A stretch of DNA of 64,000 nucleotides from Candidatus Nomurabacteria bacterium (lineage in GTDB: Bacteria > Patescibacteriota > Minisyncoccia > Phycocordibacterales > UBA918), in assembly GCA_020632155.1 (NCBI GenBank), contig JACKGE010000001.1, positions 92,011-156,010 of the forward strand, read 5' to 3'. Numbering within the stretch: position 1 is the first letter of the stretch; every line of letters starts with the position of its first letter. The position numbers were made by a program, and so were the translations under genes. Shown piece by piece: positions 12,415 through 50,696 of the stretch. The notes beneath the pieces are model-generated. The model worked only from the letters and a program-made list of their open reading frames with translations. It was not told the DNA's origin and did no database searches.

Positions 12415-13686
12415 TTAGTACTCGCGCATCGAAACCTGCGCATCAAGTCGTCGAATCAAATCCAAGATCACATTAACGACGATAAGAAGGGCGGTACCAC
12501 CAATGGCAAGCGCGGTAATACCAGTTGCCTGCTGCATACCAAACGGCAAGACAGCAATGAGCGCAAGGAAGGTAGCGCCAATAAGGGTGAGCCGCGTAAT
12601 GACATTACCTAGGTAGAGTGCCGTCTGCCCACCCGGACGAATACCCGGGATAAAGGCACCGTTACGCTGCAAGTTCTTAGCGATAGAATCTGGATCGAAG
12701 GTCACCGCGGTATAGAAGAAGGTGAAGAGGAATACGAGCACGAAGTAGACCGAGCCGTATGCCACCACATTATTTGAGAACTGCTGCACCGCAGCCAGTG
12801 CTCCATCGATACCGTTTATGTTGAAGCTGGCAAGAATGTTGAGAATCATTTGCGGAAACAACAAAATTGAGAGCGCAAAGATAATCGGGATCACACCAGC
12901 TTGGTTAAGACGAAGTGGCAGGTAACTCTGGGTTCCACCATACGTTTTACCACCACGACTCTGCTTTGCGTACGTTATTGGAACAGCACGCTCAGCCTCA
13001 GTCACGATGACAACCGCATAGATGACAGCCAGTGCCACGAGCGCGAACCCAACATAGAGTGGCAGCTGCGCGGCATTAAAGCCGAAGGCCAACTGACTTA
13101 CTGTTGCGGGGAGACCCGCTACGATACCAGCAAAGATAATGATGGATACACCATTACCGATACCGTACTCCGTTACGAGTTCACCAATCCACATCAGCAA
13201 CATAGAGCCGCCAACGATCAAGATGACGTTTGTCAGGAAGGCAAACGTTGAAAGACCAACGAGTACACCCTGACTTTGCAAGAGTGAGAGAAATCCGAAA
13301 GCTTGTAGTACAGCCAGTGGCAACGTTAGCATACGCGAATACTGCGTAAACTTAGCGCGACCAGCTTCCCCTTCCTCAGTGTAAAGGCTCTTCATTTTTG
13401 GCGACATCACGGTCATAAGCTGCATAATGATGGACGCCGTAATGAACGGACCTACTCCGAGCATCACAATCGAGAGGTTGGCAAGGCCACCTCCTGAGAA
13501 GATGTTGAGAAGACCGAGGAACTGGTTGTTCTGGAAGAACTGCTGCAGCACCGCGTGGTCAACACCCGGAATTGGGATTGCTGCCAAGGCGCGGAAGACG
13601 AAGAGTGCTCCGATGACAAACAGAACGCGATTGCGAATGGCTGGTTCGGTGAAGATGACTTTGAGTTTGTGAATGAATGTCTTCAT
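12415..13686 (-). CDS. secY: preprotein translocase subunit SecY
   Basis: 423 aa, 10 TM, canonical SecY N-terminus. Confidence 0.92.
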   Translation of the reverse strand: MKTFIHKLKVIFTEPAIRNRVLFVIGALFVFRALAAIPIPGVDHAVLQQFFQNNQFLGLLNIFSGGGLANLSIVMLGVGPFITASIIMQLMTVMSPKMKSLYTEEGEAGRAKFTQYSRMLTLPLAVLQAFGFLSLLQSQGVLVGLSTFAFLTNVILIVGGSMLLMWIGELVTEYGIGNGVSIIIFAGIVAGLPATVSQLAFGFNAAQLPLYVGFALVALAVIYAVVIVTEAERAVPITYAKQSRGGKTYGGTQSYLPLRLNQAGVIPIIFALSILLFPQMILNILASFNINGIDGALAAVQQFSNNVVAYGSVYFVLVFLFTFFYTAVTFDPDSIAKNLQRNGAFIPGIRPGGQTALYLGNVITRLTLIGATFLALIAVLPFGMQQATGITALAIGGTALLIVVNVILDLIRRLDAQVSMREY

Positions 13687-13791
13687 AGTTTAGTTTGTAG
13701 GTGTTAGGTAGTAGGTCATAGGTGCTCACGCTACGTACAGTGTACAGCAGTCGAGTGACAAAACTATAACCTAAAACCGTCGACCTGTACC
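13687..13791. repeat. palindromic heptamer-repeat element copy C4 (TAGGTN x4 ... TATAACCTAAAACC) in secY leader
   Basis: GTAGGTG TTAGGTA GTAGGTC ATAGGTG on plus strand = ACCUA heptamers immediately 5' of secY AUG on mRNA. Confidence 0.6.
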
Positions 13792-14241
13792 TTAGTTTAC
13801 CGTTCCGCCAGCTTTTTCAATCTTTTCTTTGGCGGCCTTTGATACCTCACAGCCAGTGACCGTAAGCTTTTTGCTTACTTCTCCGGTTCCGAGAATTTTA
13901 ACGAGGGGTGCCTTTTTGCGACGGGCATTGATAACACCCGCTGTCACAAGTGCCTTTGGACTAACCTCAGCACCAGCTTCAAAGGTACTCTCGAGCACAC
14001 TAAGGTTCACGGGCACCGGACGTACACGTTCCGCGTTAACGGTTGCGGCACGATTAACACCATGACCACGAAGCTTTGGCAGCTTCTTAATGGTCTCACG
14101 CATCTGTGGCACCGTACTGTTACCAGCACGAGCCTTTTGACCTTTATGACCACGACCTGATGTTTTACCACGCTTTCCACCACGACCAATACGCTTGGCG
14201 GTCTTTCGACTGGTGGATGGCTTTAATTCATGTAGCTGCAT
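13792..14241 (-). CDS. rplO: 50S ribosomal protein L15
   Basis: MQLHELKPSTSRKTAKRIGRGGKRGKTSGRGHKGQKAR. Confidence 0.9.
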   Translation of the reverse strand: MQLHELKPSTSRKTAKRIGRGGKRGKTSGRGHKGQKARAGNSTVPQMRETIKKLPKLRGHGVNRAATVNAERVRPVPVNLSVLESTFEAGAEVSPKALVTAGVINARRKKAPLVKILGTGEVSKKLTVTGCEVSKAAKEKIEKAGGTVN

Positions 14242-14243
14242 AC

Positions 14244-14882
14244 TTATGATTTAAGAAGCTTGAGTGCCTCGACAGCAGCACGTGCGTTGTTAAGTTTATT
14301 CTTGCTGCGTGAAAGCAATTTTGCAGTGACGTCTTTAACGCCAGCAAGTTCAAGGACGGTACGAACTGATGAACCAGCCACGAGACCGCGACCTGGAGCC
14401 GGTAAGATCATTACCTCACTTGAGGCGTACTTTATCGCAACATCATGTGGGATGTGATGGTCCTTATCCATAGTGACGGTAATCATGTTCTTCTTGGCGT
14501 CACGAATGGCTTTTTCAATAGCAAGCTGGGTGTCACCGGCTTTGCCGATACCAACACCAACCTTTCCTTTCTTGTCTCCGATCACCATAGATACGGAGAA
14601 ACTGAAGCGGCGTCCACCAGCCATCACACGCGTAACGCGACGAATACTGATGATTTTTTGATCGAATTCCGGACGAGCACGCTCGTCACGACGACCGCCA
14701 CGGCGTGGGCGGCGAGGGTTACGGCGCTTTTCGCCATCACCACCTCGGCGACCGCGACCACGGGGAGCTCCTTCTGCAGACGTAGCATCTGCAGCAGGTG
14801 CATCGGGCGAAGTCTTGGGCGCTTCTTTTTCTGATACTGGTGTATCAGTTGTAGCTTCCTGCTGTTTATTTTCTTCTGACAT
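14244..14882 (-). CDS. rpsE: 30S ribosomal protein S5 (R/G-rich N-terminal extension)
   Basis: ...IISIRRVTRVMAGGRRFSFSVSMVIGDKKGKVGVGIGKAGD... Confidence 0.9.
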   Translation of the reverse strand: MSEENKQQEATTDTPVSEKEAPKTSPDAPAADATSAEGAPRGRGRRGGDGEKRRNPRRPRRGGRRDERARPEFDQKIISIRRVTRVMAGGRRFSFSVSMVIGDKKGKVGVGIGKAGDTQLAIEKAIRDAKKNMITVTMDKDHHIPHDVAIKYASSEVMILPAPGRGLVAGSSVRTVLELAGVKDVTAKLLSRSKNKLNNARAAVEALKLLKS

Positions 14883-16392: not shown

Positions 16393-16628
16393 TAGGTTTA
16401 ATGGTTAGCACTTCGTACATAACACACAAAACGAACTGTCGTTCGCTACGGTGAGATATTGCTATGACGTTGTGCAGTGGAGCAGTATCACCTAGATGTA
16501 GTGACTGACTCCGCTGATAATCCGGCTCGCAGCCTCTGGCTGCTCGCCTTCACAAAAGTGGCTCCCATCTACTCCCAAGCCGCTTTTATGGTGCGCCTAC
16601 TATACGTGAAAATAAGGAAATAGCAAGA

Positions 16629-17108
16629 CTATTCCTGATTTAGTTCTGATCGGAGCTCCATCCATATTTGGCCAAGCCAATTTTGACCTTGCCAGTCTGC
16701 ACCTCGCCCCCAACAACTGTCTTTAGGTGAATCTTCAATCAATTTGGCATTTTCAGTTTGCCGCAGTGTCTTCTCAATGTATGGATGCTGTGAGATCTTT
16801 GCGCGACAAATATCTTTCATGACGACTCTCTTTTCGTCTTCCCAAGATGGACGTAATTTATTCTGATACTTTATAGCCAATTTAAGTGCGTCATGGGCTG
16901 AAGTAGCAGACGCTATCTCTTCAACAATACTTACATCATCGAAACCGGCGGCTTGAAATGCGTGCTCAGATGTCTGCCACAAACGTTCTTGCCACATTAC
17001 TGAAAAAGCAGCAAAGTTGGAAAAACAGTATCCGAACTCTCCTCCGTAGAACAAAACGGGGTCTGTAATCTTCTCTGAGTATGTATTTTCAGAATTGTTT
17101 ACGAACAT
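16629..17108 (-). CDS. NADAR (YbiA-like, DUF1768) domain protein
   Basis: FYGGEFGYCFSNFAAFSVMWQERLWQTSEHAFQAAGF matches the NADAR/YbiA signature. Confidence 0.7.
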   Translation of the reverse strand: MFVNNSENTYSEKITDPVLFYGGEFGYCFSNFAAFSVMWQERLWQTSEHAFQAAGFDDVSIVEEIASATSAHDALKLAIKYQNKLRPSWEDEKRVVMKDICRAKISQHPYIEKTLRQTENAKLIEDSPKDSCWGRGADWQGQNWLGQIWMELRSELNQE

Positions 17109-17133
17109 ACACTATTTTTAGCACATTATTAAA

Positions 17134-17165
17134 AACCGGCCGAGGATCACTCCCCAGCCGGTTCT
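17134..17165 (-). terminator. hairpin terminator overlapping the 3' end of ORF 17147..17824
   Basis: minus strand AACCGGCTGGGGAGTGATCCTCGGCCGGTTTTTAATAAT. Confidence 0.5.
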
Positions 17166-17824
17166 GATATGACTGCCTTCCACAGCCGCTCAAGCTCGCG
17201 CCCGATTCGCAGCCGCCACGATATTTGAAGCCGTAAGAGGTACCGATATACTCCATGAAGCCGACCATACACCCATGAGTAGACATACTTGGGCACACGC
17301 TGGAGTACCGGCGGTACTAGTTTCTGGAGACCCAAAAACGCAACCGATCGGAACAAGAAATGCTGCGTGGACCGTAGCCCATACAACACATATGGTCGCA
17401 CCAAAGGCCAGAAACCAATGATAACGATCACAAAATGACCGAAGTAATGGTGCACGACCACAAACAGTGACACGCTGAAGGTGAGCGACAGAAGTATTCT
17501 AAATGGTGTTGAAACCAGAATATTCAGCCGTGTCTTCAATAGCAGCCAGAATGCGCGGCCGTACTGGCCCACCTGCTTGGATAGGGCGTCTACTCGTTTC
17601 CGTACCCAGCGCGGCGCCAACGGGCGCAAGAACCACAACATTAGGTACTGCGGCGCTGATATCAGCACAAAGCGACGAGTCAGTACCAATATCCACGCTA
17701 CAACCGAGTCGTACGTTACCTCCCTCAAGACCCATTCAATTTGGCGAACCAGTGTGTCCCGAGGCATAGCCTCGGGCGCAAAATATGCCCCCAGCCCAAA
17801 GAGGAGGAACAGCAATTTTCGCAT
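17147..17824 (-). CDS. hypothetical polytopic membrane protein (W/R/L-rich)
   Basis: 225-aa ORF inserted between rplE and rpsN; multiple overlapping alternative-frame ORFs make coding status uncertain. Confidence 0.4.
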   Translation of the reverse strand: MRKLLFLLFGLGAYFAPEAMPRDTLVRQIEWVLREVTYDSVVAWILVLTRRFVLISAPQYLMLWFLRPLAPRWVRKRVDALSKQVGQYGRAFWLLLKTRLNILVSTPFRILLSLTFSVSLFVVVHHYFGHFVIVIIGFWPLVRPYVLYGLRSTQHFLFRSVAFLGLQKLVPPVLQRVPKYVYSWVYGRLHGVYRYLLRLQISWRLRIGRELERLWKAVISEPAGE

Positions 17825-17947
17825 TAACTCCTCCTATGCCTGGATGCGAAGAACGTTCGGCGAAACAATACAATATTTCCTCGAAAAATCAACAAAAAAC
17901 ACTCCTAAGGGAGTGTTTTTTGTTTTCTGGAAGTCGAAAGTAGAGAA

Positions 17948-19509: not shown

Positions 19510-19716
19510 CTAGTTAGTCTCTGCCTTAGGAGCTTCCTTACCACGAGCGGTAAGTTCTGTTAGTGCGCGAGCGATCTCGTGACGAGCTGCGCGAACCGCA
19601 CGCACATCACGAGATGCGTGGTTGAAACGCGCGCTGCGCATTTCTTCTCGACGCTCAGTAACAAGCTCTTGTAACTCTTTGTCGCTCAGTTTGCGAATGT
19701 CTGCCATTGTTTTCAT
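19510..19716 (-). CDS. rpmC: 50S ribosomal protein L29
   Basis: MKTMADIRKLSDKELQELVTERREEMRSARF...; start moved to internal Met (ORF begins 19770). Confidence 0.85.
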   Translation of the reverse strand: MKTMADIRKLSDKELQELVTERREEMRSARFNHASRDVRAVRAARHEIARALTELTARGKEAPKAETN

Positions 19717-19814
19717 AATATTTCGTATTTCGCTAGTTCGCTCTTCGTTTTTCGAAGGTGCCCGAGGCACTCTCGAAGTGCTAAAAGCGAGGGACGAAGT
19801 GCGAGAAACTTGGG

Positions 19815-20249
19815 CTACGCCCTAGTTTCTTCACGAGTTACAAAACGGCCTTTAAGAGGAAGTTTGGCGGCTGCTTTGCGCATTGCCTCACGTGCCACCT
19901 CTTCAGAGACACCGTCTACTTCGAATAATACTCGACCGGGTGCTACTTCAAATACAAAGTGGTCTGGGTCACCCTTACCCTTACCCATACCTACCTCAGC
20001 TGGCTTTTTAGTAATCGGCTTATCAGGGAAGATACGAATCCATATCTTACCGGTCTTACCAAGCGTACGTGAGATAACACGACGTGCCGCCTCAATCTGA
20101 TTTGATTTAACGCGAGCCGGTGAGGTGGCCTTAAGGCCGTACGAGCCGAACGCAACAGTGACGCCGCGAGTCTCAGGACGCTGAAGCGCCTCCTCACTCT
20201 TACGACCAATCTGCCACTTTCGGTGTTTTACTTTCTTCGGAAACAACAT
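19815..20249 (-). CDS. rplP: 50S ribosomal protein L16
   Basis: MLFPKKVKHRKWQIGRK... Confidence 0.93.
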   Translation of the reverse strand: MLFPKKVKHRKWQIGRKSEEALQRPETRGVTVAFGSYGLKATSPARVKSNQIEAARRVISRTLGKTGKIWIRIFPDKPITKKPAEVGMGKGKGDPDHFVFEVAPGRVLFEVDGVSEEVAREAMRKAAAKLPLKGRFVTREETRA

Positions 20250-20254
20250 ACGCG

Positions 20255-20974
20255 TTAGTTACGAGGGGTGCGACGAGGACGCGCGGCTGGCTTTTCAGCC
20301 TCACCACTGGCGCGACGATCTGCAAAGACGTCACCACGGTAGATCCACACCTTGATACCAATGGCACCGTACGGAAGTACTGCAGTTACGCGCGCAAAAT
20401 CAATGTCTGCACGTAGGGTTTGTAGTGGGATTCGACCTTTCTTGAGCTCTTCGCGACGAGCCATATCAGCTCCGCCAAGACGTCCGGATACAATGATACG
20501 AACACCTTGTACGTCACGATTAGCCATTACCTTCTCAACGGTCTGCTTAAGCACGCGACGAAATGGCATGCGCTTTTCTAGACCTTCCGCTACCATCTGG
20601 CCGACGATAGTGGCGCTCGTTTCTGGTGAGCGAACCTCTTCAATATCGATCTTAAGCTCTGGCTTCTCCTCAAGTTTGAGGGTACGCAAGAGCATATCGA
20701 CATCCTTCTTTAGTTTAGTAGCTCCTTCGCCGCTACGACCAATGACCAACCCTGGGCGGGCGGTCTTGATGAGGATACGAAGGGCTTTTTCATCACGCTC
20801 GATCTCTACCGTGTCGACTGACATACCTTTAAGGCGCTTTGCCAGCAACTTACGGATAGCAGCATCGGTGCGTAGATATTCACGAAAACGCTTTTGGTCA
20901 GCTGCGAACCAGCGGCTACGCCAGTCGCGGTTGATTCCAATGCGTTGTACGTATGGATGTGCTACGTGTGTCAT
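20255..20974 (-). CDS. rpsC: 30S ribosomal protein S3
   Basis: 239 aa, KH domain plus C-terminal basic tail. Confidence 0.93.
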   Translation of the reverse strand: MTHVAHPYVQRIGINRDWRSRWFAADQKRFREYLRTDAAIRKLLAKRLKGMSVDTVEIERDEKALRILIKTARPGLVIGRSGEGATKLKKDVDMLLRTLKLEEKPELKIDIEEVRSPETSATIVGQMVAEGLEKRMPFRRVLKQTVEKVMANRDVQGVRIIVSGRLGGADMARREELKKGRIPLQTLRADIDFARVTAVLPYGAIGIKVWIYRGDVFADRRASGEAEKPAARPRRTPRN

Positions 20975-21059
20975 AATTTAGGTTATAGGTTATAGGTTAT
21001 AGGGAAATCGTATTCGACAATTTCTGACACCTGAAACCTGACACCTGTTAACTTAGGCT
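20975..21059. repeat. palindromic heptamer-repeat element copy C1 in rplV-rpsC intercistronic space
   Basis: plus strand TAGGTTA TAGGTTA TAGGTTA TAGGG - hairpin GAAATCG..ATTTC - TGACACC TGAAACC TGACACC TG. Confidence 0.65.
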
Positions 21060-21377
21060 TTAGCCTAGTTCGACAGTGATGTGACTGTTTCGACGATTAA
21101 TTGGGGACGCGCTACCGCGGGCACGAGGCATAAAGCGCTTATAGGTTGCGCCCTTGTCTACAGTGACCTTTTTGATGGTAAGGTGGTCGACATTCTTGCC
21201 AGATTGAGCCGCGTTGGCTGCTGCTGACGAAATGACCTTAGCAAACGGACCAGCCGCACGCTTATCGACAAACTGCAAGGTGGCCAACGCCTCCTTTACT
21301 TTCTTGCCGCGTACGAGGTCTGCAATGAGACGAACCTTACGAGGTGACTGGCGGTAATTCTTAAGTACTGCTTTCAT
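21060..21377 (-). CDS. rplV: 50S ribosomal protein L22
   Basis: MKAVLKNYRQSPRKVRLIADLVRGKKV. Confidence 0.9.
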   Translation of the reverse strand: MKAVLKNYRQSPRKVRLIADLVRGKKVKEALATLQFVDKRAAGPFAKVISSAAANAAQSGKNVDHLTIKKVTVDKGATYKRFMPRARGSASPINRRNSHITVELG

Positions 21378-21467
21378 GATTTTAGGTTATAGGTTGTAGG
21401 TTATAGGTTGTAGAGAAATCGTCTTTGAAGATTTCTGAAACCTGAAACCTGTCACCTGCAAACTTCG
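21378..21467. repeat. palindromic heptamer-repeat element copy C2 in rpsS-rplV intercistronic space
   Basis: TAGGTTA TAGGTTG TAGGTTA TAGGTTG TAG - hairpin AGAAATCGTCTTTGAAGATTTCT - GAAACCT GAAACCT GTCACCTG. Confidence 0.65.
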
Positions 21468-21794
21468 TTAGGCGGCCTTAGCTGCTTTAGCTGCTGCTAT
21501 TTCAGCCTCCTTCTTCTTCTGGTCAAGCTCCTTCTGCATCTTACCGCCGTGGCGATAGAACTTCTTGGTTGGGGCAAATTCTCCGAGACGATGACCTACC
21601 ATTTCTTCTGTACACTGGACTGAGAGGTGCTCTCGGCCATTGTGTACGCCAAAAGTAAAGCCAACCATCTCCGGTGAGATGACCGCATCACGTGACCATG
21701 TTTTGATCACTCCTGCCTCGGCCGGCTTCTTGCCGTCGATTTTCTTTAGCAGGCGCTCATCTACGAATGGGCCTTTATATACTGATCGTGACAT
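21468..21794 (-). CDS. rpsS: 30S ribosomal protein S19
   Basis: [19 protein letters not shown]...; Lys/Ala-rich C-terminal tail. Confidence 0.92.
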
Positions 21795-21934
21795 AGATTG
21801 TAGTAACGAATAAACGACTCAAAAAGAGCCTTGTATCGCAGTGCGATTAACGGTCACACAACGACATCATCTTGTTCTTTTTTGTGCGTACCGCTGCTGC
21901 CAGGCTTTAGTACACCGAGGTTTGGAACGGCCGT

Positions 21935-21963
21935 ATACTACGGGAAACTAAGGGGATTGTCAA
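21935..21963 (-). promoter_or_regulatory. putative sigma70-like promoter for rpsS block (TTGACA-17-TAGTAT on minus strand)
   Basis: needed because a terminator follows rplB; sequence-only prediction. Confidence 0.4.
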
Positions 21964-22029
21964 TGTTCTTGCTGAAACGCGCCGGACATGTTTTATTGGT
22001 TATAGAGAACATGTTCTAGGGAGGCTTCA

Positions 22030-22467
22030 ATGAAGGAACATACGCTCCGTCGAATCACTGTGGCCGTGTTTTTTGCACCTTTTTTGGTGAGTTGTCAGTA
22101 TTGCTACGAACTACAGACAGAGATGGCCCCGCAAATGATAGCGGGTAAACCATGGACACCTGCAATGCAAGCTTTTTGGTTTAGGTACACCCAAACCAAC
22201 AGCGTGATGATGGTGTCATTGGCATTATTGATTGTTCTACATTTCTGGAAGTCAGGATCAAGGTCTCGAGCCGCAGATCTGGTGAGATATCTGTACTTCG
22301 GTCTACTTGAAGGACTTACTATTGCCGTTGCGACATACACCTACGGAATCAGTGTGGTATTCACCACGACAACCGCAGAGTGGTTTTCCTACTTTTTGGT
22401 GAGCTGGGGCCTTTATATTGGCCATTTGCAGAGCCACGAACTTTCTCGACTTCTACCCAAAAACTAA
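22030..22467 (+). CDS. hypothetical membrane protein (145 aa), opposite strand, inserted between rplB and rpsS
   Basis: SD GGGAGG 6 nt before ATG; about 4 TM. Confidence 0.55.
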   Translation: MKEHTLRRITVAVFFAPFLVSCQYCYELQTEMAPQMIAGKPWTPAMQAFWFRYTQTNSVMMVSLALLIVLHFWKSGSRSRAADLVRYLYFGLLEGLTIAVATYTYGISVVFTTTTAEWFSYFLVSWGLYIGHLQSHELSRLLPKN

Positions 22468-22480
22468 GGAGGCGAATAGC

Positions 22481-22675
22481 ATGTGTGATCTTGTTCATTC
22501 CATGCATATCAAGGCTTGCGGTGGCGAATATGACGGGAAACACCCCATCGCCGAGCTCAAGAAAAAAGCAAAAAGAGGCGACGCCAACGCAAAAAGCGCA
22601 CTGCTCCTAAGGGCGCAGCTCGGCACATCTGATTCGCATGAGGCGGCAAAAGCAGTGCAAGAACTCGGCCTCTGA
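22481..22675 (+). CDS. hypothetical small protein (64 aa)
   Basis: AAGGAGG-8nt-ATG (MCDLVHSMHIKACGG...); internal start of ORF 22418. Confidence 0.45.
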   Translation: MCDLVHSMHIKACGGEYDGKHPIAELKKKAKRGDANAKSALLLRAQLGTSDSHEAAKAVQELGL

Positions 22676-22725
22676 AGACAAGGGGTTGAAAAAACTAATA
22701 GACTCGGCGAGGAATCGCCGGGTTT

Positions 22726-22764
22726 TCTGTTACCTAGACAAAAGCCGCGCCCTATGGGCGCGGC
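22726..22764 (+). terminator. 18-bp perfect hairpin (TAGACAAAAGCCGCGCCC-TAT-GGGCGCGGCTTTTGTCTA)
   Basis: perfect inverted repeat after small + strand gene. Confidence 0.55.
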
Positions 22765-22796
22765 TTTTGTCTAGGCATAGTGATACGCTTACTAAT

Positions 22797-22833
22797 AATC
22801 AAAAAACCTGCGCAAGGCGCAGGTTTTTTGATT
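22797..22833. terminator. bidirectional terminator abutting the rplB stop codon (AATCAAAAAACCTGCGC-AAG-GCGCAGGTTTTTTGATT)
   Basis: 17-bp stem with A6/T6 flanks; would terminate rplC-rplB transcription before rpsS. Confidence 0.65.
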
Positions 22834-23695
22834 ATTTCTTCCTGTTCTGCATGAGCTTGCCGGGTTTGCGGCGAGACACGATGAACTTGTTTGAGTACTT
22901 CTTTGGTTTACGGGTCTTTTGACCTTTACCAGTCGGACGACCTTGTGCGGTGCGTGAACGCTTGTGACCACGAGGACTGCGTCCCTCACCACCTCCATGT
23001 GGGTGATCAACTGCGTTCTTGGCGCTACCACGTGTCTTCGGGCGAAGACCCATATGGCGAGCACGTCCCGCCTTACCGATGTTTACCAAACGGTGTTCCT
23101 CATTTGAGGCTTCACCAACTGTTGCCCAGCAAGTCGAGAGGATACGGCGCACCTCCGATGATGGGAGTTTGAGCTGCGTGTACCCACCGTCATGAGCTAC
23201 CACCTCGGCGTAGTTACCGGCGCTACGCGCAATGCGAGCTCCAGCACCCGGCTTTAGTTCAATAGCGTAGACAAAGGTACCTGCTGGTAGTTTACCAAGT
23301 GGCAAACGATTACCAAGCTTAGCCTTTGCTTTCTCCGAAACGGTGAAGGTATCACCTACCTTCATACGCTGTGGTGCTACGATGTAGCGACGCTCACCGT
23401 CTTTGTAGAGTACAAGGGCGATAAACGCGCTACGGTAGGGATCGTATTCGACAGATTCTACCTTCGCTGGAATATCCTTCTTATCGAACTTGAAGTCGAT
23501 CTCACGATACTTGCGCTTGTTGCCAGCACCACGATACCACGTAGTGGTACGACCTTGACTGTTACGACCACCGGTTGAACTCTTACCCTTTACAAGGGCC
23601 TTGTGTGGCTGGTTCTTAGAGCCTGAGAGTTTCTCTTTGTATGAGACAACGGTCATGCCACGACGACCAGCTGATGTTGGTTTGTATTTTTTCAT
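22832..23695 (-). CDS. rplB: 50S ribosomal protein L2
   Basis: 287 aa; ...GGGEGRSPRGHKRS... Confidence 0.93.
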   Translation of the reverse strand: MKKYKPTSAGRRGMTVVSYKEKLSGSKNQPHKALVKGKSSTGGRNSQGRTTTWYRGAGNKRKYREIDFKFDKKDIPAKVESVEYDPYRSAFIALVLYKDGERRYIVAPQRMKVGDTFTVSEKAKAKLGNRLPLGKLPAGTFVYAIELKPGAGARIARSAGNYAEVVAHDGGYTQLKLPSSEVRRILSTCWATVGEASNEEHRLVNIGKAGRARHMGLRPKTRGSAKNAVDHPHGGGEGRSPRGHKRSRTAQGRPTGKGQKTRKPKKYSNKFIVSRRKPGKLMQNRKK

Positions 23696-25385: not shown

Positions 25386-25594
25386 TTACTTTGGACTATC
25401 CTAATAAATTCTTATTAAGACCCAAACAAAATCGCACTTGGCAAGTCGCGAGCACAGCTCACGCATTACCAAGCGCGATTTTGTGCCCATTGGTTCTCAG
25501 GAATGCAGGCACTCCCTCACCGAACATAGGTCTTTAATAAGCTGGTGGTAGTATACGGATTTTGGACAAATTAGCAAGTTGCGCACCAATGTGA

Positions 25595-25624
25595 TTGACA
25601 AAAGCCTCATTGGAGCGGTATGGT
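25595..25624 (+). promoter_or_regulatory. putative promoter TTGACA-18-TATGGT driving the small peptide ORF
   Basis: sequence-only. Confidence 0.35.
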
Positions 25625-25634
25625 ACGAAGTAGG

Positions 25635-25691
25635 AGGGGTCAGCATGCGGACAGACCTTCTCTTGATCCTCGTGATCTTTTTGTACATATT
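25635..25691 (+). CDS. 18-aa hydrophobic peptide MRTDLLLILVIFLYIFRA (type I toxin-like, Ibs/Sib style) between rpsJ and rplC
   Basis: AGGAGGGG SD 6 nt upstream of ATG, own promoter, downstream terminator; too short for ORF track. Confidence 0.3.
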
Positions 25692-25842
25692 CCGCGCATA
25701 AGGAAGCTGCGATGAAAAGCAGGAATTGTGAAAGGATTTTGACAACCTTCGGATTCCTCCTCAACTATCGCAACCCTCATTGGTAGGACTACGAAGCCTG
25801 CCAAAGACCGCTAGGCCGGATAGCCTGTGAGATAAAGAAGCT

Positions 25843-25889
25843 CTGCGATGTAACCACCAACGTGTCACGTCGCAGGGCTTTTCTTTTTG
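25843..25889 (+). terminator. plus-strand hairpin + T-run (CTGCGATG...CGTCGCAG GGCTTTTCTTTTTG)
   Basis: 8-bp stem with G.T wobble, T-rich tail. Confidence 0.5.
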
Positions 25890-25895
25890 AAAATA

Positions 25896-25935
25896 AACCA
25901 AAACCCCGCGGCTGAAGCCGCGGGGTTTTGGTTTT
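25896..25935. terminator. bidirectional GC-rich terminator (AAACCCCGCGGC-TGAA-GCCGCGGGGTTTTGGTTTT) downstream of rpsJ
   Basis: 9-bp GC stem with A/T runs both sides; separates rpsJ from rplC. Confidence 0.65.
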
Positions 25936-26076
25936 GGCAACTAAGTTGAACTATTCTGAGGAAAAATGGATGAGATGCAAGGCACCGGAGGAAAATAATG
26001 TGAGTGCGGCTACTAGCCGAGCGAACATTATTTTACCGATCGGTAACAAAGCAGGTCGCCATTTTTACCAGAATAA

Positions 26077-26433: not shown

Positions 26434-26538
26434 ATTTTAAGGTTTTAGTTTATAGGTTTAAGGTTTCAGTGTTTGGTGTAAGAAACGCCAAAGCATTTCT
26501 GCAACCATCAAACCTTATCCCTGTCCTTTACATTGTTG
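26434..26538. repeat. heptamer-repeat element copy C3 (diverged) in tuf-rpsJ intergenic leader
   Basis: AAGGTTT TAGTTTA TAGGTTT AAGGTTT CAGTGTT - hairpin AGAAACGCCAAAGCATTTCT. Confidence 0.55.
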
Positions 26539-44154: not shown

Positions 44155-44399
44155 GACTTTAGTTATTAGTTATGAGCGAAAAAATGAGAAGTATGACACA
44201 TCATATTTTCATTCTTCGCATAATGGTCACTCTTTCGAGTACCAATCGGTATCTGTAGCGAATATAAACTATTAAGTTACTCGTTTTAAATCAGGTGGAA
44301 ATTGTTTTGTAGCGCGGCGCACAAGGAATGTGGCGCGAGCTTTATTTGGCAATAAAGTGAGTGTCACATTACCGCCGTGCAACAAAGCTACAGAACGAT

Positions 44400-49820: not shown

Positions 49821-50240
49821 TTACGCGTTATCCATCGCTTCATTAGCCAAACGATCGGCTTCTTTATTTTGCTCGCGGCGCACATGGGTAAGCGTCAAGT
49901 TTGGAAAGTTTGCTACCCGTAAATTATGTATCTCGATAAACAGTGGTACGAGCCCTGGTTCTTTTATCTGGTATTCACCATTTAGTTGTTTTTTTACCAG
50001 TTCACTATCCATGCGCAGTTCAAAAGCCATCTCTTTGGTCTTTTTACCGAAGTGGCTTTTAAGAGTTGAAAGGGCTGTGGCCACGGCTAGGTACTCAGCA
50101 AAATTGTTAGTGGCGTTACCAATGAATTCCGATACTTCTTTGATGACGTCACCTTGCTCATTCACAATCTGAATACCGACACCAGCTGGTCCGGGGTTTC
50201 CACGCGCACCTCCGTCTGTATACGCAATAATTTTTTCCAT
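49821..50240 (-). CDS. rnhA: ribonuclease HI
   Basis: MEKIIAYTDGGARGNPGPAG...NNFAEYLAV...; ORF begins with TTG one codon earlier, ATG at 50238-50240. Confidence 0.9.
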   Translation of the reverse strand: MEKIIAYTDGGARGNPGPAGVGIQIVNEQGDVIKEVSEFIGNATNNFAEYLAVATALSTLKSHFGKKTKEMAFELRMDSELVKKQLNGEYQIKEPGLVPLFIEIHNLRVANFPNLTLTHVRREQNKEADRLANEAMDNA

Positions 50241-50258
50241 CAACTCAATAATAACACA

Positions 50259-50294: not shown

Positions 50295-50696
50295 TTACTT
50301 TAGTGCCCGCTTCCATCGTCCTTTACCCATTGGCGGCATACCTCCCTGCAAAACAGTTTCAAGTGTCTTGAGAAATGCCTCACGATCAAATTTCTTTGAA
50401 CTGACCAATTTCAGTATTGCCGCAAAGTGTCCTTCATCGTATTTGAGAGCATAGTCACTGGCAGTTGTCTCACTCAACTTGAGTGTTTGCGATATTCTAT
50501 ATCGGGAATAACCTTTATCTAACATTACGATGGTCGCCAACCGTTTCATGTACATTACTCGTTCCGACTCAGTAAATAATTCATTAAAAAGTTCTCCAGC
50601 TGTTTTGCTGTTACAAACCGCAAAGAGATCAGTGAGTTGCTTTTGCAGTTGTTGTATGTGAGCTGACTTGAGTTCTTGTTTTGAAACGTTGGTCAT
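50295..50696 (-). CDS. TrpR-like YerC/YecD family DNA-binding protein
   Basis: ...ERVMYMKRLATIVMLDKGYSRYRISQTLKLSETTASDYALKY... resembles the YerC HTH. Confidence 0.6.
   Translation of the reverse strand: MTNVSKQELKSAHIQQLQKQLTDLFAVCNSKTAGELFNELFTESERVMYMKRLATIVMLDKGYSRYRISQTLKLSETTASDYALKYDEGHFAAILKLVSSKKFDREAFLKTLETVLQGGMPPMGKGRWKRALK

Follow-up and report, generated by a model that had tools for sequence, protein, structure and literature searches.

Five intergenic spacers in a 64-kb window of the Candidatus Nomurabacteria contig JACKGE010000001.1 (the window being the whole stretch of DNA analysed, to which all copy counts for the host genome refer) are built from paired arrays of heptanucleotide repeats that are predicted to fold into hairpins between the stop codon of one gene and the start codon of the next. 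The host is a member of the Parcubacteria in the candidate phyla radiation, and the elements, here named C1 to C5, separate genes of its ribosomal protein (r-protein) cluster. C1 to C4, the copies noticed first, belong to a wider class that occurs with different heptamers in other Parcubacteria and also at non-ribosomal junctions. With little better than even confidence, we read these elements as foldback-type passengers, akin to repetitive extragenic palindromes (REPs) and miniature inverted-repeat transposable elements (MITEs), that are tolerated by the host and are not conserved regulators.

Gene identities were taken from NCBIfam profiles, which identify tuf, rpsJ, rplB, rpsS, rplV, rpsC, rplP, rpsZ, rplO and secY, all on the minus strand, and tandem arrays from Tandem Repeats Finder (TRF). 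Fold z-scores were computed against shuffled sequences, and all RNA structures are predictions. The elements and their parts are as follows.

20975..21059, minus strand: element C1, the entire rplV-rpsC spacer, 85 nt; fold -20.8 kcal/mol, z -3.16
21024..21047, minus strand: 5' arm of C1 on the mRNA, CAGGTGT CAGGTTT CAGGTGT CAG; TRF period 7, 3.4 copies
21004..21024, minus strand: central hairpin of C1, GAAAUUGU-CGAAU-ACGAUUUC, overlapping the arm end by 1 base; 8-bp stem in the minimum-free-energy structure
20979..21003, minus strand: 3' arm of C1, (TAACCTA) x3.6, ending 4 nt before the rpsC ATG; TRF, 100% matches
21378..21467, minus strand: element C2, the entire rpsS-rplV spacer, 90 nt; fold -22.7 kcal/mol, z -3.99
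21435-21463 and 21383-21413, minus strand: 5' and 3' arms of C2, respectively; TRF
26434..26538, minus strand: element C3, the tuf-rpsJ spacer, 105 nt, with looser heptamers; fold -25.9 kcal/mol, z -3.75
13687..13791, minus strand: element C4, the rplO-secY spacer, 105 nt, with a NACCTAN arm and a different centre; fold -29.9 kcal/mol, z -1.5
19717..19814, minus strand: element C5, the rplP-rpmC spacer, 98 nt; fold -29.8 kcal/mol, z -3.10, a segmented hairpin as in C1 to C4

In the mRNA sense, C1 to C4 share a common layout, in which the stop codon is followed by a heptamer arm rich in G and U, then by a short hairpin and a second heptamer arm rich in C and A, and 4-11 unrepeated bases lead to the AUG. 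C1 reads TAA, 14 nt, CAGGTGT CAGGTTT CAGGTGT, the hairpin GAAATTGT/ACGATTTC, (CTATAAC)x3 CTA, AATT and ATG, and C2 has the same layout plus one extra unit. TRF found TAGGTTA x3.6 at 20979-21003 and TAGGTTA x4.4 at 21383-21413, opposed by arrays at 21024-21047 and 21435-21463 (CTGACAC x3.4 and CTGAAAC x4.0), together with a looser array at 26436-26466; the autocorrelation of all four spacers was maximal at lag 7. In the predicted fold of C1, the 5' arm pairs with the 3' arm through helices of 4-5 bp with internal loops between them, and the sense-strand folds of C1 to C4 are all stacks of such helices with an internal loop every 7 nt. A preliminary description of this stretch had likened C1 to C4, as long but imperfect palindromes, to MITE/REP elements and had taken them for a family embedded in transcribed parts of r-protein operons. 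The four spacers lie at the coordinates and between the genes it gave, on the minus strand, and the folds and alignments bear out the palindromes and their kinship. Its estimate of about 85% identity over about 75 nt for C1 and C2 agrees with our alignment (85.5% over 76 nt). The single architecture with a common hairpin that it gave to all four copies holds for C1, C2 and C3, which are collinear and have in common the hairpin CAGAAAT...ATTTCT (AGAAAUGC...GCGUUUCU in C3), but C4 has another centre and has only the ACCTA-type arm in common with them.

The 12-mer TAGGTTATAGGT matched the window 15 times with at most 2 mismatches against 2.9 matches expected; none of 100 shuffles reached 15, and 13 of the 15 matches fall within C1 to C4. 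Chance low-complexity sequence without structure, for which only the simplicity of the sequence speaks, is effectively excluded by these counts, by fold z-scores of about -3 to -4, by the over-representation of period 7 and by the complementarity of the arms in cis described below.

The preliminary description had counted four copies; C5 is a fifth, made of a different heptamer. It consists of (CGNNNTT)x5, the GC hairpin GCCUCGGGCACC, (CGAANNN)x5, AUU and ATG, and its lag-7 autocorrelation (0.40) is the maximum over lags 1-14. Thus, one genome carries the same architecture in two unrelated unit sequences. The proper start of rpmC is the ATG at 19714-19716 (MKTMADIRKLSDKEL), in agreement with the 68-aa L29 calls on sister contigs, and the GTG start of the longest open reading frame (ORF), at 19770 inside C5, is probably wrong.

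We then compared the window with 80 related r-protein loci (1.3 Mb in total with the window), in which gene calls are crude. The S3 protein is most closely related to those of metagenome-assembled Parcubacteria/Paceibacterota (Kaiserbacteria-like), the closest of them 86-80% identical, and the nearest relatives are about 81% identical to the window in seven concatenated r-proteins. Intergenic tandem arrays of at least 2.8 copies had period 7 in 86 cases in the 81 sequences, versus 13 cases for period 8, 22 for period 9 and 6 for period 10, and for 50 of the 86 the array end is no more than 20 nt away from a start codon. Over 182 long intercistronic spacers, mean autocorrelation peaked at lag 7 (0.355) and lag 14 (0.332), with about 0.28 elsewhere. 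The unit sequence varies from genome to genome and, within one genome, from junction to junction: TTTCGGA, TTAAGGA, CTAACCG, AAACGCC, AGCTATC and CATAATT were found in the locus L061, ACGCTAC and AAGCTAG in L054, and AACCCTA, AACTAAA and CTAACAA in L003. The arms are nevertheless complementary in cis, as the true 5' and 3' halves form a duplex of -19.5 kcal/mol versus -9.0 kcal/mol for swaps across genomes (p = 7e-13), and by duplex energy the true partner ranked first or second for 22 of 40 elements. The median fold z-score of the elements was -3.7, and 30 of the 40 were below -2. In 38 of 47 elements, every reading frame of the spacer is interrupted by a stop codon, and this holds for each strand.

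Pairing "partly via G.U", as previously described, turned out not to be informative about the strand. Sense and antisense fold energies do not differ in the 40 heptamer elements (p = 0.45), and the antisense is slightly more stable over all 182 long spacers (p = 0.004). G.U pairs number 64 of 894 in the sense and 111 of 938 in the antisense, an antisense excess close to that predicted from the A-rich composition of the sense strand. The wobble and fold-energy test therefore cannot separate RNA-level from DNA-level selection.

The hairpins share one geometry relative to stop and start codons. In 37 hairpins, the outer stem starts a median of 1 nt past the upstream stop codon, the bases of which are paired in 16 of them, and ends a median of 10 nt (mostly 5-13 nt) before the AUG. 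In the window, the gap from stop codon to stem is 3 nt in C2, 13 nt in C1 and 5 nt in C4 and, as read from the folds, about 16 nt in C3 and about 10 nt in C5; the array ends 3-6 nt before the ATG in C1 to C3, 3 nt before it in C5 and about 11 nt before it in C4. The C/A-rich arm thus adjoins the AUG, as had been claimed. The AUG itself is predicted to be single-stranded, together with 5-12 nt on its 5' side; position -13 and beyond are paired. Of 1014 junctions, 875 are without an element, and their spacers have a median length of 8 nt (interquartile range 4-15). With its foot at the stop codon and its end about 10 nt before the AUG, the hairpin would therefore loop out the insert and leave a junction of normal length. 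Shine-Dalgarno (SD)-like cores are found before about 4% of r-protein cistrons, whether an element is present or not, and before none of the element-bearing start codons of the window. Positions -12 to -1 contain 44% A and 7-9% G in both groups, so the C/A-rich arm preserves the normal composition of the start region. At the L054 rplV and L061 rplC ends, the 5' array extends into the gene before it, of which it provides the last residues and the stop codon, indicating that the elements can remodel the C-termini of r-proteins; array run-in was noted at the L054 rplV-rpsC and L061 rplC-rplD junctions and at the L019 and L060 rplV ends.

On the passenger reading, the five sequences are copies of a non-coding miniature element of the foldback type, 85-105 nt long, and represent a Parcubacterial counterpart of the heptameric simple-sequence repeats and REP/MITE-like palindromes of other bacteria. 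The elements would originate and multiply by being copied from one very short junction of highly expressed operons to another, chiefly in the r-protein cluster. Their arms would alter by slippage and concerted evolution, the unit turning over while period 7 and arm complementarity persist. Co-transcribed with the operon, each would fold in the mRNA as a bulged hairpin with its foot at or just after the stop codon and its end about 5-12 nt before the next AUG, such that the insert of about 90 nt is looped out and the effective stop-to-start distance stays as at an element-free junction. Since the AUG-proximal arm would also keep the A-rich, G-poor composition of SD-less start regions, termination-reinitiation coupling of the r-protein cistrons could continue. 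The elements may be tolerated, with structural side effects, because the hairpin takes the insert off the path from stop to start and keeps such a start region.

The distribution of the elements is patchy. Most genomes have spacers of 1-25 nt, and heavily occupied genomes lie in scattered clades, with long spacers at 15 of 15 junctions assessed in L061, 10 of 15 in L054 and 9 of 18 in L003, and with spacers of at least 45 nt at 16 of 17 in L024. At the junctions of C1 to C4, the relatives L002, L004 and L007 have spacers of 6-32 nt wherever the junction is covered; L001 has at most 17 nt at three of them and a 147-nt spacer without heptamers at tuf-rpsJ. The positionally conserved regulatory leader that the preliminary description implied as its alternative thus finds no support in the mostly short spacers of the nearest relatives, the very absence from orthologous leaders that it had named as evidence against conservation. 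This applies to L001, L002, L004 and L007, which are mostly element-free. L003 alone among the nearest relatives keeps probable orthologues, at rplV-rpsC and rplO-secY. The 5' arm of its rplO-secY element can be aligned with that of C4, AGGT/ACCT having changed in concert to AGGGT/ACCCT with period 7 unchanged, and its rplV-rpsC spacer has a solitary 3' array ending in ...CCCTAAATTT ATG, as in C1.

Other elements are related within and between genomes. L024 contains 11 copies of a palindromic family of about 110 nt at r-protein junctions, all in one orientation, and L060 contains one more. L061 has pairs of near-identical elements at different junctions. An ACGCTAC array lies at rpsH-rplF in L061 but at rplX-rplE in L054, whose concatenated r-proteins are 87% identical, and junctions filled in one of these two genomes are empty in the other. 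Copying between junctions appears evident from the sequence comparisons (C1 with C2, L024, L061, and L061 with L054). The L024 family itself has a period of about 10 (CTACGAAT / ATTCGTAG; for example L024 2265-2396 and 9878-10000, and L060 570-697), with highly conserved arms, a variable centre and a conserved ATG at its 5' end that opens a mini-ORF of about 26 codons (MKSQSTND...). One contig, L206 (ERZ28655656 scaffold_100613), lacks C2 at positions 1-80, where an 11-nt spacer follows a divergent rpsS tail (84% identical), and from the rplV ATG onward matches the window without a difference over 993 nt. The contig may be either a chimera of assembly or a recombinant empty-site allele, and it was left unused as evidence.

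Arrays of this type also occur beyond r-protein genes and this lineage. Among the listed matches of a metagenome scan for (AACCTAY)x3, at least 26 lie inside open frames, at least 31 have a start codon within 40 nt and at least 69 lie elsewhere. Many of these listed matches are (GTAGGTT)n...(AACCTAC)n hairpins, and at least 13 are start-adjacent hairpins, 8 of the 13 following a co-directional ORF whose stop codon, in 6 of the 8, lies at the hairpin foot or within 6 nt of it. The genes downstream of listed hairpins include those for S20, L15, a queA-like protein and membrane proteins; GroEL, after GroES, is preceded by a solitary array without a hairpin. AACCTAY-type arrays were also found in 26 viral contigs. 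In L226, L235 and L245 (IMGVR_UViG_3300005512_004212) and in L244, (GTAGGTT)n...(AACCTAC)n arms enclose cores about 100 nt long. L226 and L235 belong to a single region that is present twice, with its flanks, in opposite orientations, and hence are not independent insertions.

The genes flanking C1 to C4 and the candidate transcription signals of the cluster are as follows.

21060..21377, minus strand: rplV (L22), between C2 and C1; TIGR01044, 2.7e-32
20255..20974, minus strand: rpsC (S3), downstream of C1; TIGR01009, 4.8e-67
21468..21794, minus strand: rpsS (S19), upstream of C2; TIGR01050
26077..26433, minus strand: rpsJ (S10), downstream of C3; NF001861, 5.8e-41
12415..13686, minus strand: secY, downstream of C4; TIGR00967, 9.5e-111
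22794-22836: terminator after rplB, a 20-bp bidirectional hairpin (terminator scan)
17924-17891: terminator after rplE, a 15-bp hairpin (terminator scan)
21963-21935: promoter-like site before rpsS, TTGACA-17-TAGTAT (promoter scan)
16626-16599: promoter-like site before rpsZ (promoter scan)

The terminators and promoter-like sites suggest that the "S10-spc" cluster forms several transcription units here, and rpsS is probably the first cistron of its unit. By the same positions, C2, C1 and C5 would be internal to a unit from rpsS to rplE, and C4 to a unit from rpsZ to secY. We also considered whether the elements are transcription signals themselves, namely internal promoters, with TATAAC resembling a -10 box, attenuators or terminators. 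On inspection, both C1 and C2 show TATAAC 7-8 nt upstream of the ATG. The scan, however, placed none of its promoter- or terminator-like sites at an element, the stems are not followed by a U-tract, and the units of other families do not resemble a -10 box, so that this reading is effectively excluded. The ideas of a -10 box with leaderless transcription, and of the 5' arm as an SD-like AGGUG tether, were rejected as confined to the unit of the window and not general. Rfam (Rfam 15) gave no matches at gathering scores in the whole window and none at E <= 1 over 19600-21600, and a scan of the window for tRNA and tmRNA found none.

Several observations weigh against a passenger origin. All five elements of the window lie within the r-protein cluster, and among about 44 spacers of at least 40 nt scanned for lag-7 identity, only C1 to C4 scored high (C5 fell outside the scan, rpmC having been miscalled). 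Across the loci, array density is 1.03 per kb of non-coding sequence within tuf-secY versus 0.25 outside, and most arrays outside lie just past secY. Were the element purely selfish, a wider distribution would be expected. Members of one family share their orientation. TAG recurs at 7-nt spacing in 5' arms and CTA in 3' arms, with ratios of 10:1 and 17:1 elements. No transposase (Y1/RAYT PF01797 or other) was found among 20 ORFs of the window scanned against Pfam, and no target-site duplication was seen in comparisons of filled with empty sites (the window with L001/L002/L004; L061 with L054), in which the arrays blur the borders. Two elements apparently predate the divergence from L003 (81% r-protein identity) and have been kept ever since. 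Furthermore, C1 to C4 are identical bar one single-nucleotide polymorphism, with no change in length, in 9-10 contigs from several groundwater samples (ERZ273093xx, ERZ2865xxxx and SRR1235867x sets) and one NCBI metagenome-assembled genome (GCA_020428955.1), an invariance unlike that of slippage-prone repeats. C1 is identical in 7 further assemblies that cover it fully, C3 in 3 other contigs, and C4 has 0-1 mismatches in 10 contigs; the repeat number of C1 to C4 thus does not vary between samples in the manner of phase variation. Three more contigs end inside C1, and several sister contigs end inside C1, C2 or C3, indicating that the repeats break assemblies.

A selected role would also predict these points, from the bias, the shared orientation and the handedness to the missing duplication and transposase, the invariance and the persistence. 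The main such role, which we hold to be possible but doubtful, is that of translational-coupling hairpins, in which the stem abuts the upstream stop codon and covers the site of ribosome landing from about -10 upstream, and a ribosome would load downstream only when the terminating upstream ribosome melts the foot of the stem, providing equimolar r-proteins in SD-less organisms. It accords with a foot 1 nt after the stop codon and a 3' end 10 nt before the AUG (medians), with the similar stop-foot geometry at non-ribosomal operon junctions, with the scarcity of SD-like cores (before only about 4% of cistrons), with the roughly 4-fold enrichment of arrays in the r-protein cluster, and with the uniform orientation, uniform handedness and invariant copies. 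The probable L003 orthologues of C1 and C4, with arms that changed in concert at constant period, also favour it, as does the lack of an element before the first cistron after either promoter-like site (rpsS and rpsZ). Against this role, most Parcubacteria, including the nearest relatives at the same junctions, have 1-25-nt spacers without an element, and occupancy has turned over between two genomes with 87% r-protein identity. In addition, the predicted folds leave the AUG and the 5-12 nt before it unpaired, the sense strand shows neither an excess of G.U pairs nor a difference in fold energy, and the 12 copies of the L024/L060 family include no compensatory pair, their arms being too conserved. 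Known coupling hairpins, such as those at the MS2 coat/replicase junction, E. coli rpmI-rplT and other r-protein operons, are unique conserved structures that occlude the ribosome-binding site or AUG. The elements resemble them in that the downstream initiation region adjoins a structure that the upstream ribosome would have to open, but here the AUG is predicted to be unpaired and the elements are repeated, variable and dispensable.

A bolder version of this idea, which we regard as tentative and rather improbable, is that heptad-repeat "zipper" hairpins are a widespread, previously unrecognised translation device of SD-less Parcubacteria. Their arms would tie the stop codon to the next start, so that initiation on every r-protein cistron depends on upstream termination, possibly with a factor that reads the periodic UAG/CUA, and selection would keep period 7 and handedness while the sequence drifts.

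Another alternative is that UAG in the 5' arm and CUA in the 3' arm, recurring every 7 nt, are sites for a multimeric RNA-binding protein or the ribosome (S1-/Csp-type) and act as enhancer or repressor. HutP, for example, binds UAG triplets spaced by four bases. CTA occurs 87 times in 3' halves versus 41.9 expected (2.1-fold) and TAG 56 times in 5' halves versus 35.8; the triplets are spaced by 7 or 14 nt in 10 elements (TAG) and 17 elements (CTA). This enrichment and strong handedness suit such an array; the handedness stays the same when the other strand is read. Solitary arrays that lack a complementary arm and immediately precede a start codon (L003 rplV-rpsC, L077, L056 and TAACTAA x2 before the rpsG of the window) likewise suit it, and there is a precedent in the same hypothesis, earlier proposed by MacGregor for TAACTGA repeats (PMC4679880). 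We nevertheless consider it unlikely. Many units lack TAG and CTA (CGAANNN in C5, AAACGCC, CATAATT, TTAAGGA), and the presence of several different units in one genome makes a single sequence-specific binder unlikely. Moreover, arms complementary in cis would mask single-stranded sites, and no candidate binding protein was identified.

Small intercistronic palindromes can also act on the message itself: REP, ERIC and Correia elements and the RNase III sites of the T7 early region work as processing or stability hairpins. The elements might accordingly be cut by RNase III or stall 3'-exonucleases and so segment or stabilise polycistronic r-protein mRNA. Stable intercistronic hairpins (30 of 40 with z below -2) inside transcription units, and genomes with a hairpin at nearly every junction (L061, L024), would fit, but the stems of the window, helices of 4-5 bp broken every 7 nt, should be poor RNase III substrates, and period 7 and dispensability would be left unexplained. 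We judge processing to be very unlikely as the explanation of the elements; such a role would not exclude the passenger reading, and some of the other alternatives are also partly non-exclusive.

The elements are of a known kind, in that heptameric intergenic repeats and small transcribed palindromes have both been described. REP/BIME elements (with RAYT transposases), ERIC elements and the Correia/NEMIS MITEs are small, transcribed, imperfect palindromes that occur between cistrons in many copies and form hairpins in mRNA. REPs are 20-40 nt long and GC-rich, MITEs have target-site duplications and a parent insertion sequence, and none of them is known to have arms of tandem heptamers. C1 to C5 are likewise intercistronic palindromes predicted to form mRNA hairpins, their opposite-strand (G/A)TAGG recalls the GTAG of REPs, and their arms pair in cis like the terminal inverted repeats of a MITE. 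Unlike REPs and MITEs, they have tandem-heptamer arms, and in the window and the comparisons of filled with empty sites none of the features that mark those systems was found. At 85-105 nt, AT-rich and built of heptamers, they are not GC-rich palindromes of 20-40 nt with a 5' GTAG, and GTAGGTT is a variant unit in C2 only. Foldback (FB) transposons of Drosophila and other eukaryotes are kilobase-scale, with subrepeats of 10-31 bp; they, too, have inverted arms of short tandem subrepeats around a variable centre, a likeness that implies no homology.

Among known systems, the nearest is that of the TAACTGA heptamers of Beggiatoaceae, which precede start codons. Marine Beggiatoaceae, cyanobacteria and Bacteroidetes carry direct repeats of this unit upstream of their start codons; in Beggiatoaceae the repeats also lie at internal r-protein junctions, with no function known (MacGregor 2015, PMC4679880). 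They resemble the arrays here in being tandem (2-6 units) and "forward", in ending a few nucleotides from a start codon at the position of the missing SD, and in being phylogenetically patchy and present at internal r-protein junctions (PMC4679880). The units are also similar, TAACTGA there and TAACCTA here. In the rpsL-rpsG spacer of the window (245 nt, 44155-44399), TAACTAA x2 at 44159-44173, 5 nt before the rpsG ATG, forms a solitary mini-array close to the published unit, the remaining spacer holding ordinary small hairpins. TAACTGA repeats, however, have one unit genome-wide, are direct only and are predicted to be unstructured (PMC4679880), whereas in our candidate-phyla-radiation host and its relatives there are many units, each with a complementary inverted array and a central hairpin. 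The elements thus have forward heptamers near SD-less starts but neither the TAACTGA unit nor the absence of secondary structure.

According to Mrazek (2007), as cited in PMC4679880 and PMC4692102, no other class of longer simple repeat is as over-represented in many bacteria as heptamers are, and polymerase slippage is a possible cause. Intergenic examples are the Calothrix STRR, Xanthomonas GGGAATC and Nostoc GGGGAYT repeats (PMC4679880, PMC4692102). In those, as here, period 7 dominates, the same genes flank the arrays in relatives while sequence and length vary, and inverted pairs, which could form stem-loops, occur occasionally. Their arrays are mostly solitary, often long, G-rich (G-quadruplex forming) and not tied to stop/start junctions, whereas the arrays here comprise 3-5 units, almost always pair into hairpins and keep one copy number in the assemblies compared. 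They nonetheless consist of at least three head-to-tail units and are intergenic with an over-represented period 7, as heptanucleotide simple-sequence repeats are. A G-quadruplex was considered and rejected, as four G3 tracts were seen on inspection only in L003, and the arms of the window have three GG runs. In the literature searched, we found no paper linking heptamer repeats with Parcubacteria, Patescibacteria or the candidate phyla radiation, and paired heptamer arrays that form stop-to-start hairpins, with many sequence families and one geometry, in Parcubacteria r-protein operons appear to be undescribed there.

Some further features of the region were noted. In nearly all of the 80 Parcubacteria loci, the r-protein cluster is split by hundreds to thousands of bases at rpsJ-rplC, rplB-rpsS and rplE-rpsZ; in the window, these interruptions lie at 25386-26076, 21795-22831 and 16393-17947. 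The inserts contain a NADAR-domain gene (16629-17108), an unassigned 225-aa gene (17147-17824) and, on the opposite strand, a 145-aa ORF (22030-22467) with no Pfam matches. rplO follows rpsE by 2 nt, with no rpmD (L30) between them (13792-14882); L30 is reported absent in bacteria of the candidate phyla radiation, and this adjacency fits. A stand-alone RNase H/RVT_3-like ORF of 140 aa lies at 49821-50243, next to a Trp-repressor-like ORF at 50295-50696.

Clusters of heptamers before start codons occur in a few bacterial lineages, and neither their function nor their origin has been established (PMC4679880, PMC4692102). Here the same phenomenon is sharper, as paired arrays lie between stop and start codons of those operons that are most conserved, in genomes of very small size. 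Dozens of sequence versions, independent of one another but alike in geometry, are natural replicates for two questions: does mutation or selection account for period 7, and how does termination-reinitiation tolerate or exploit an insert of about 90 nt? If the zipper device were real, it would give a function to the unexplained excess of heptamers before start codons in other bacteria. If the elements are passengers only, they would still mark operon junctions, break metagenome assemblies and mislead gene callers on start codons and C-termini.

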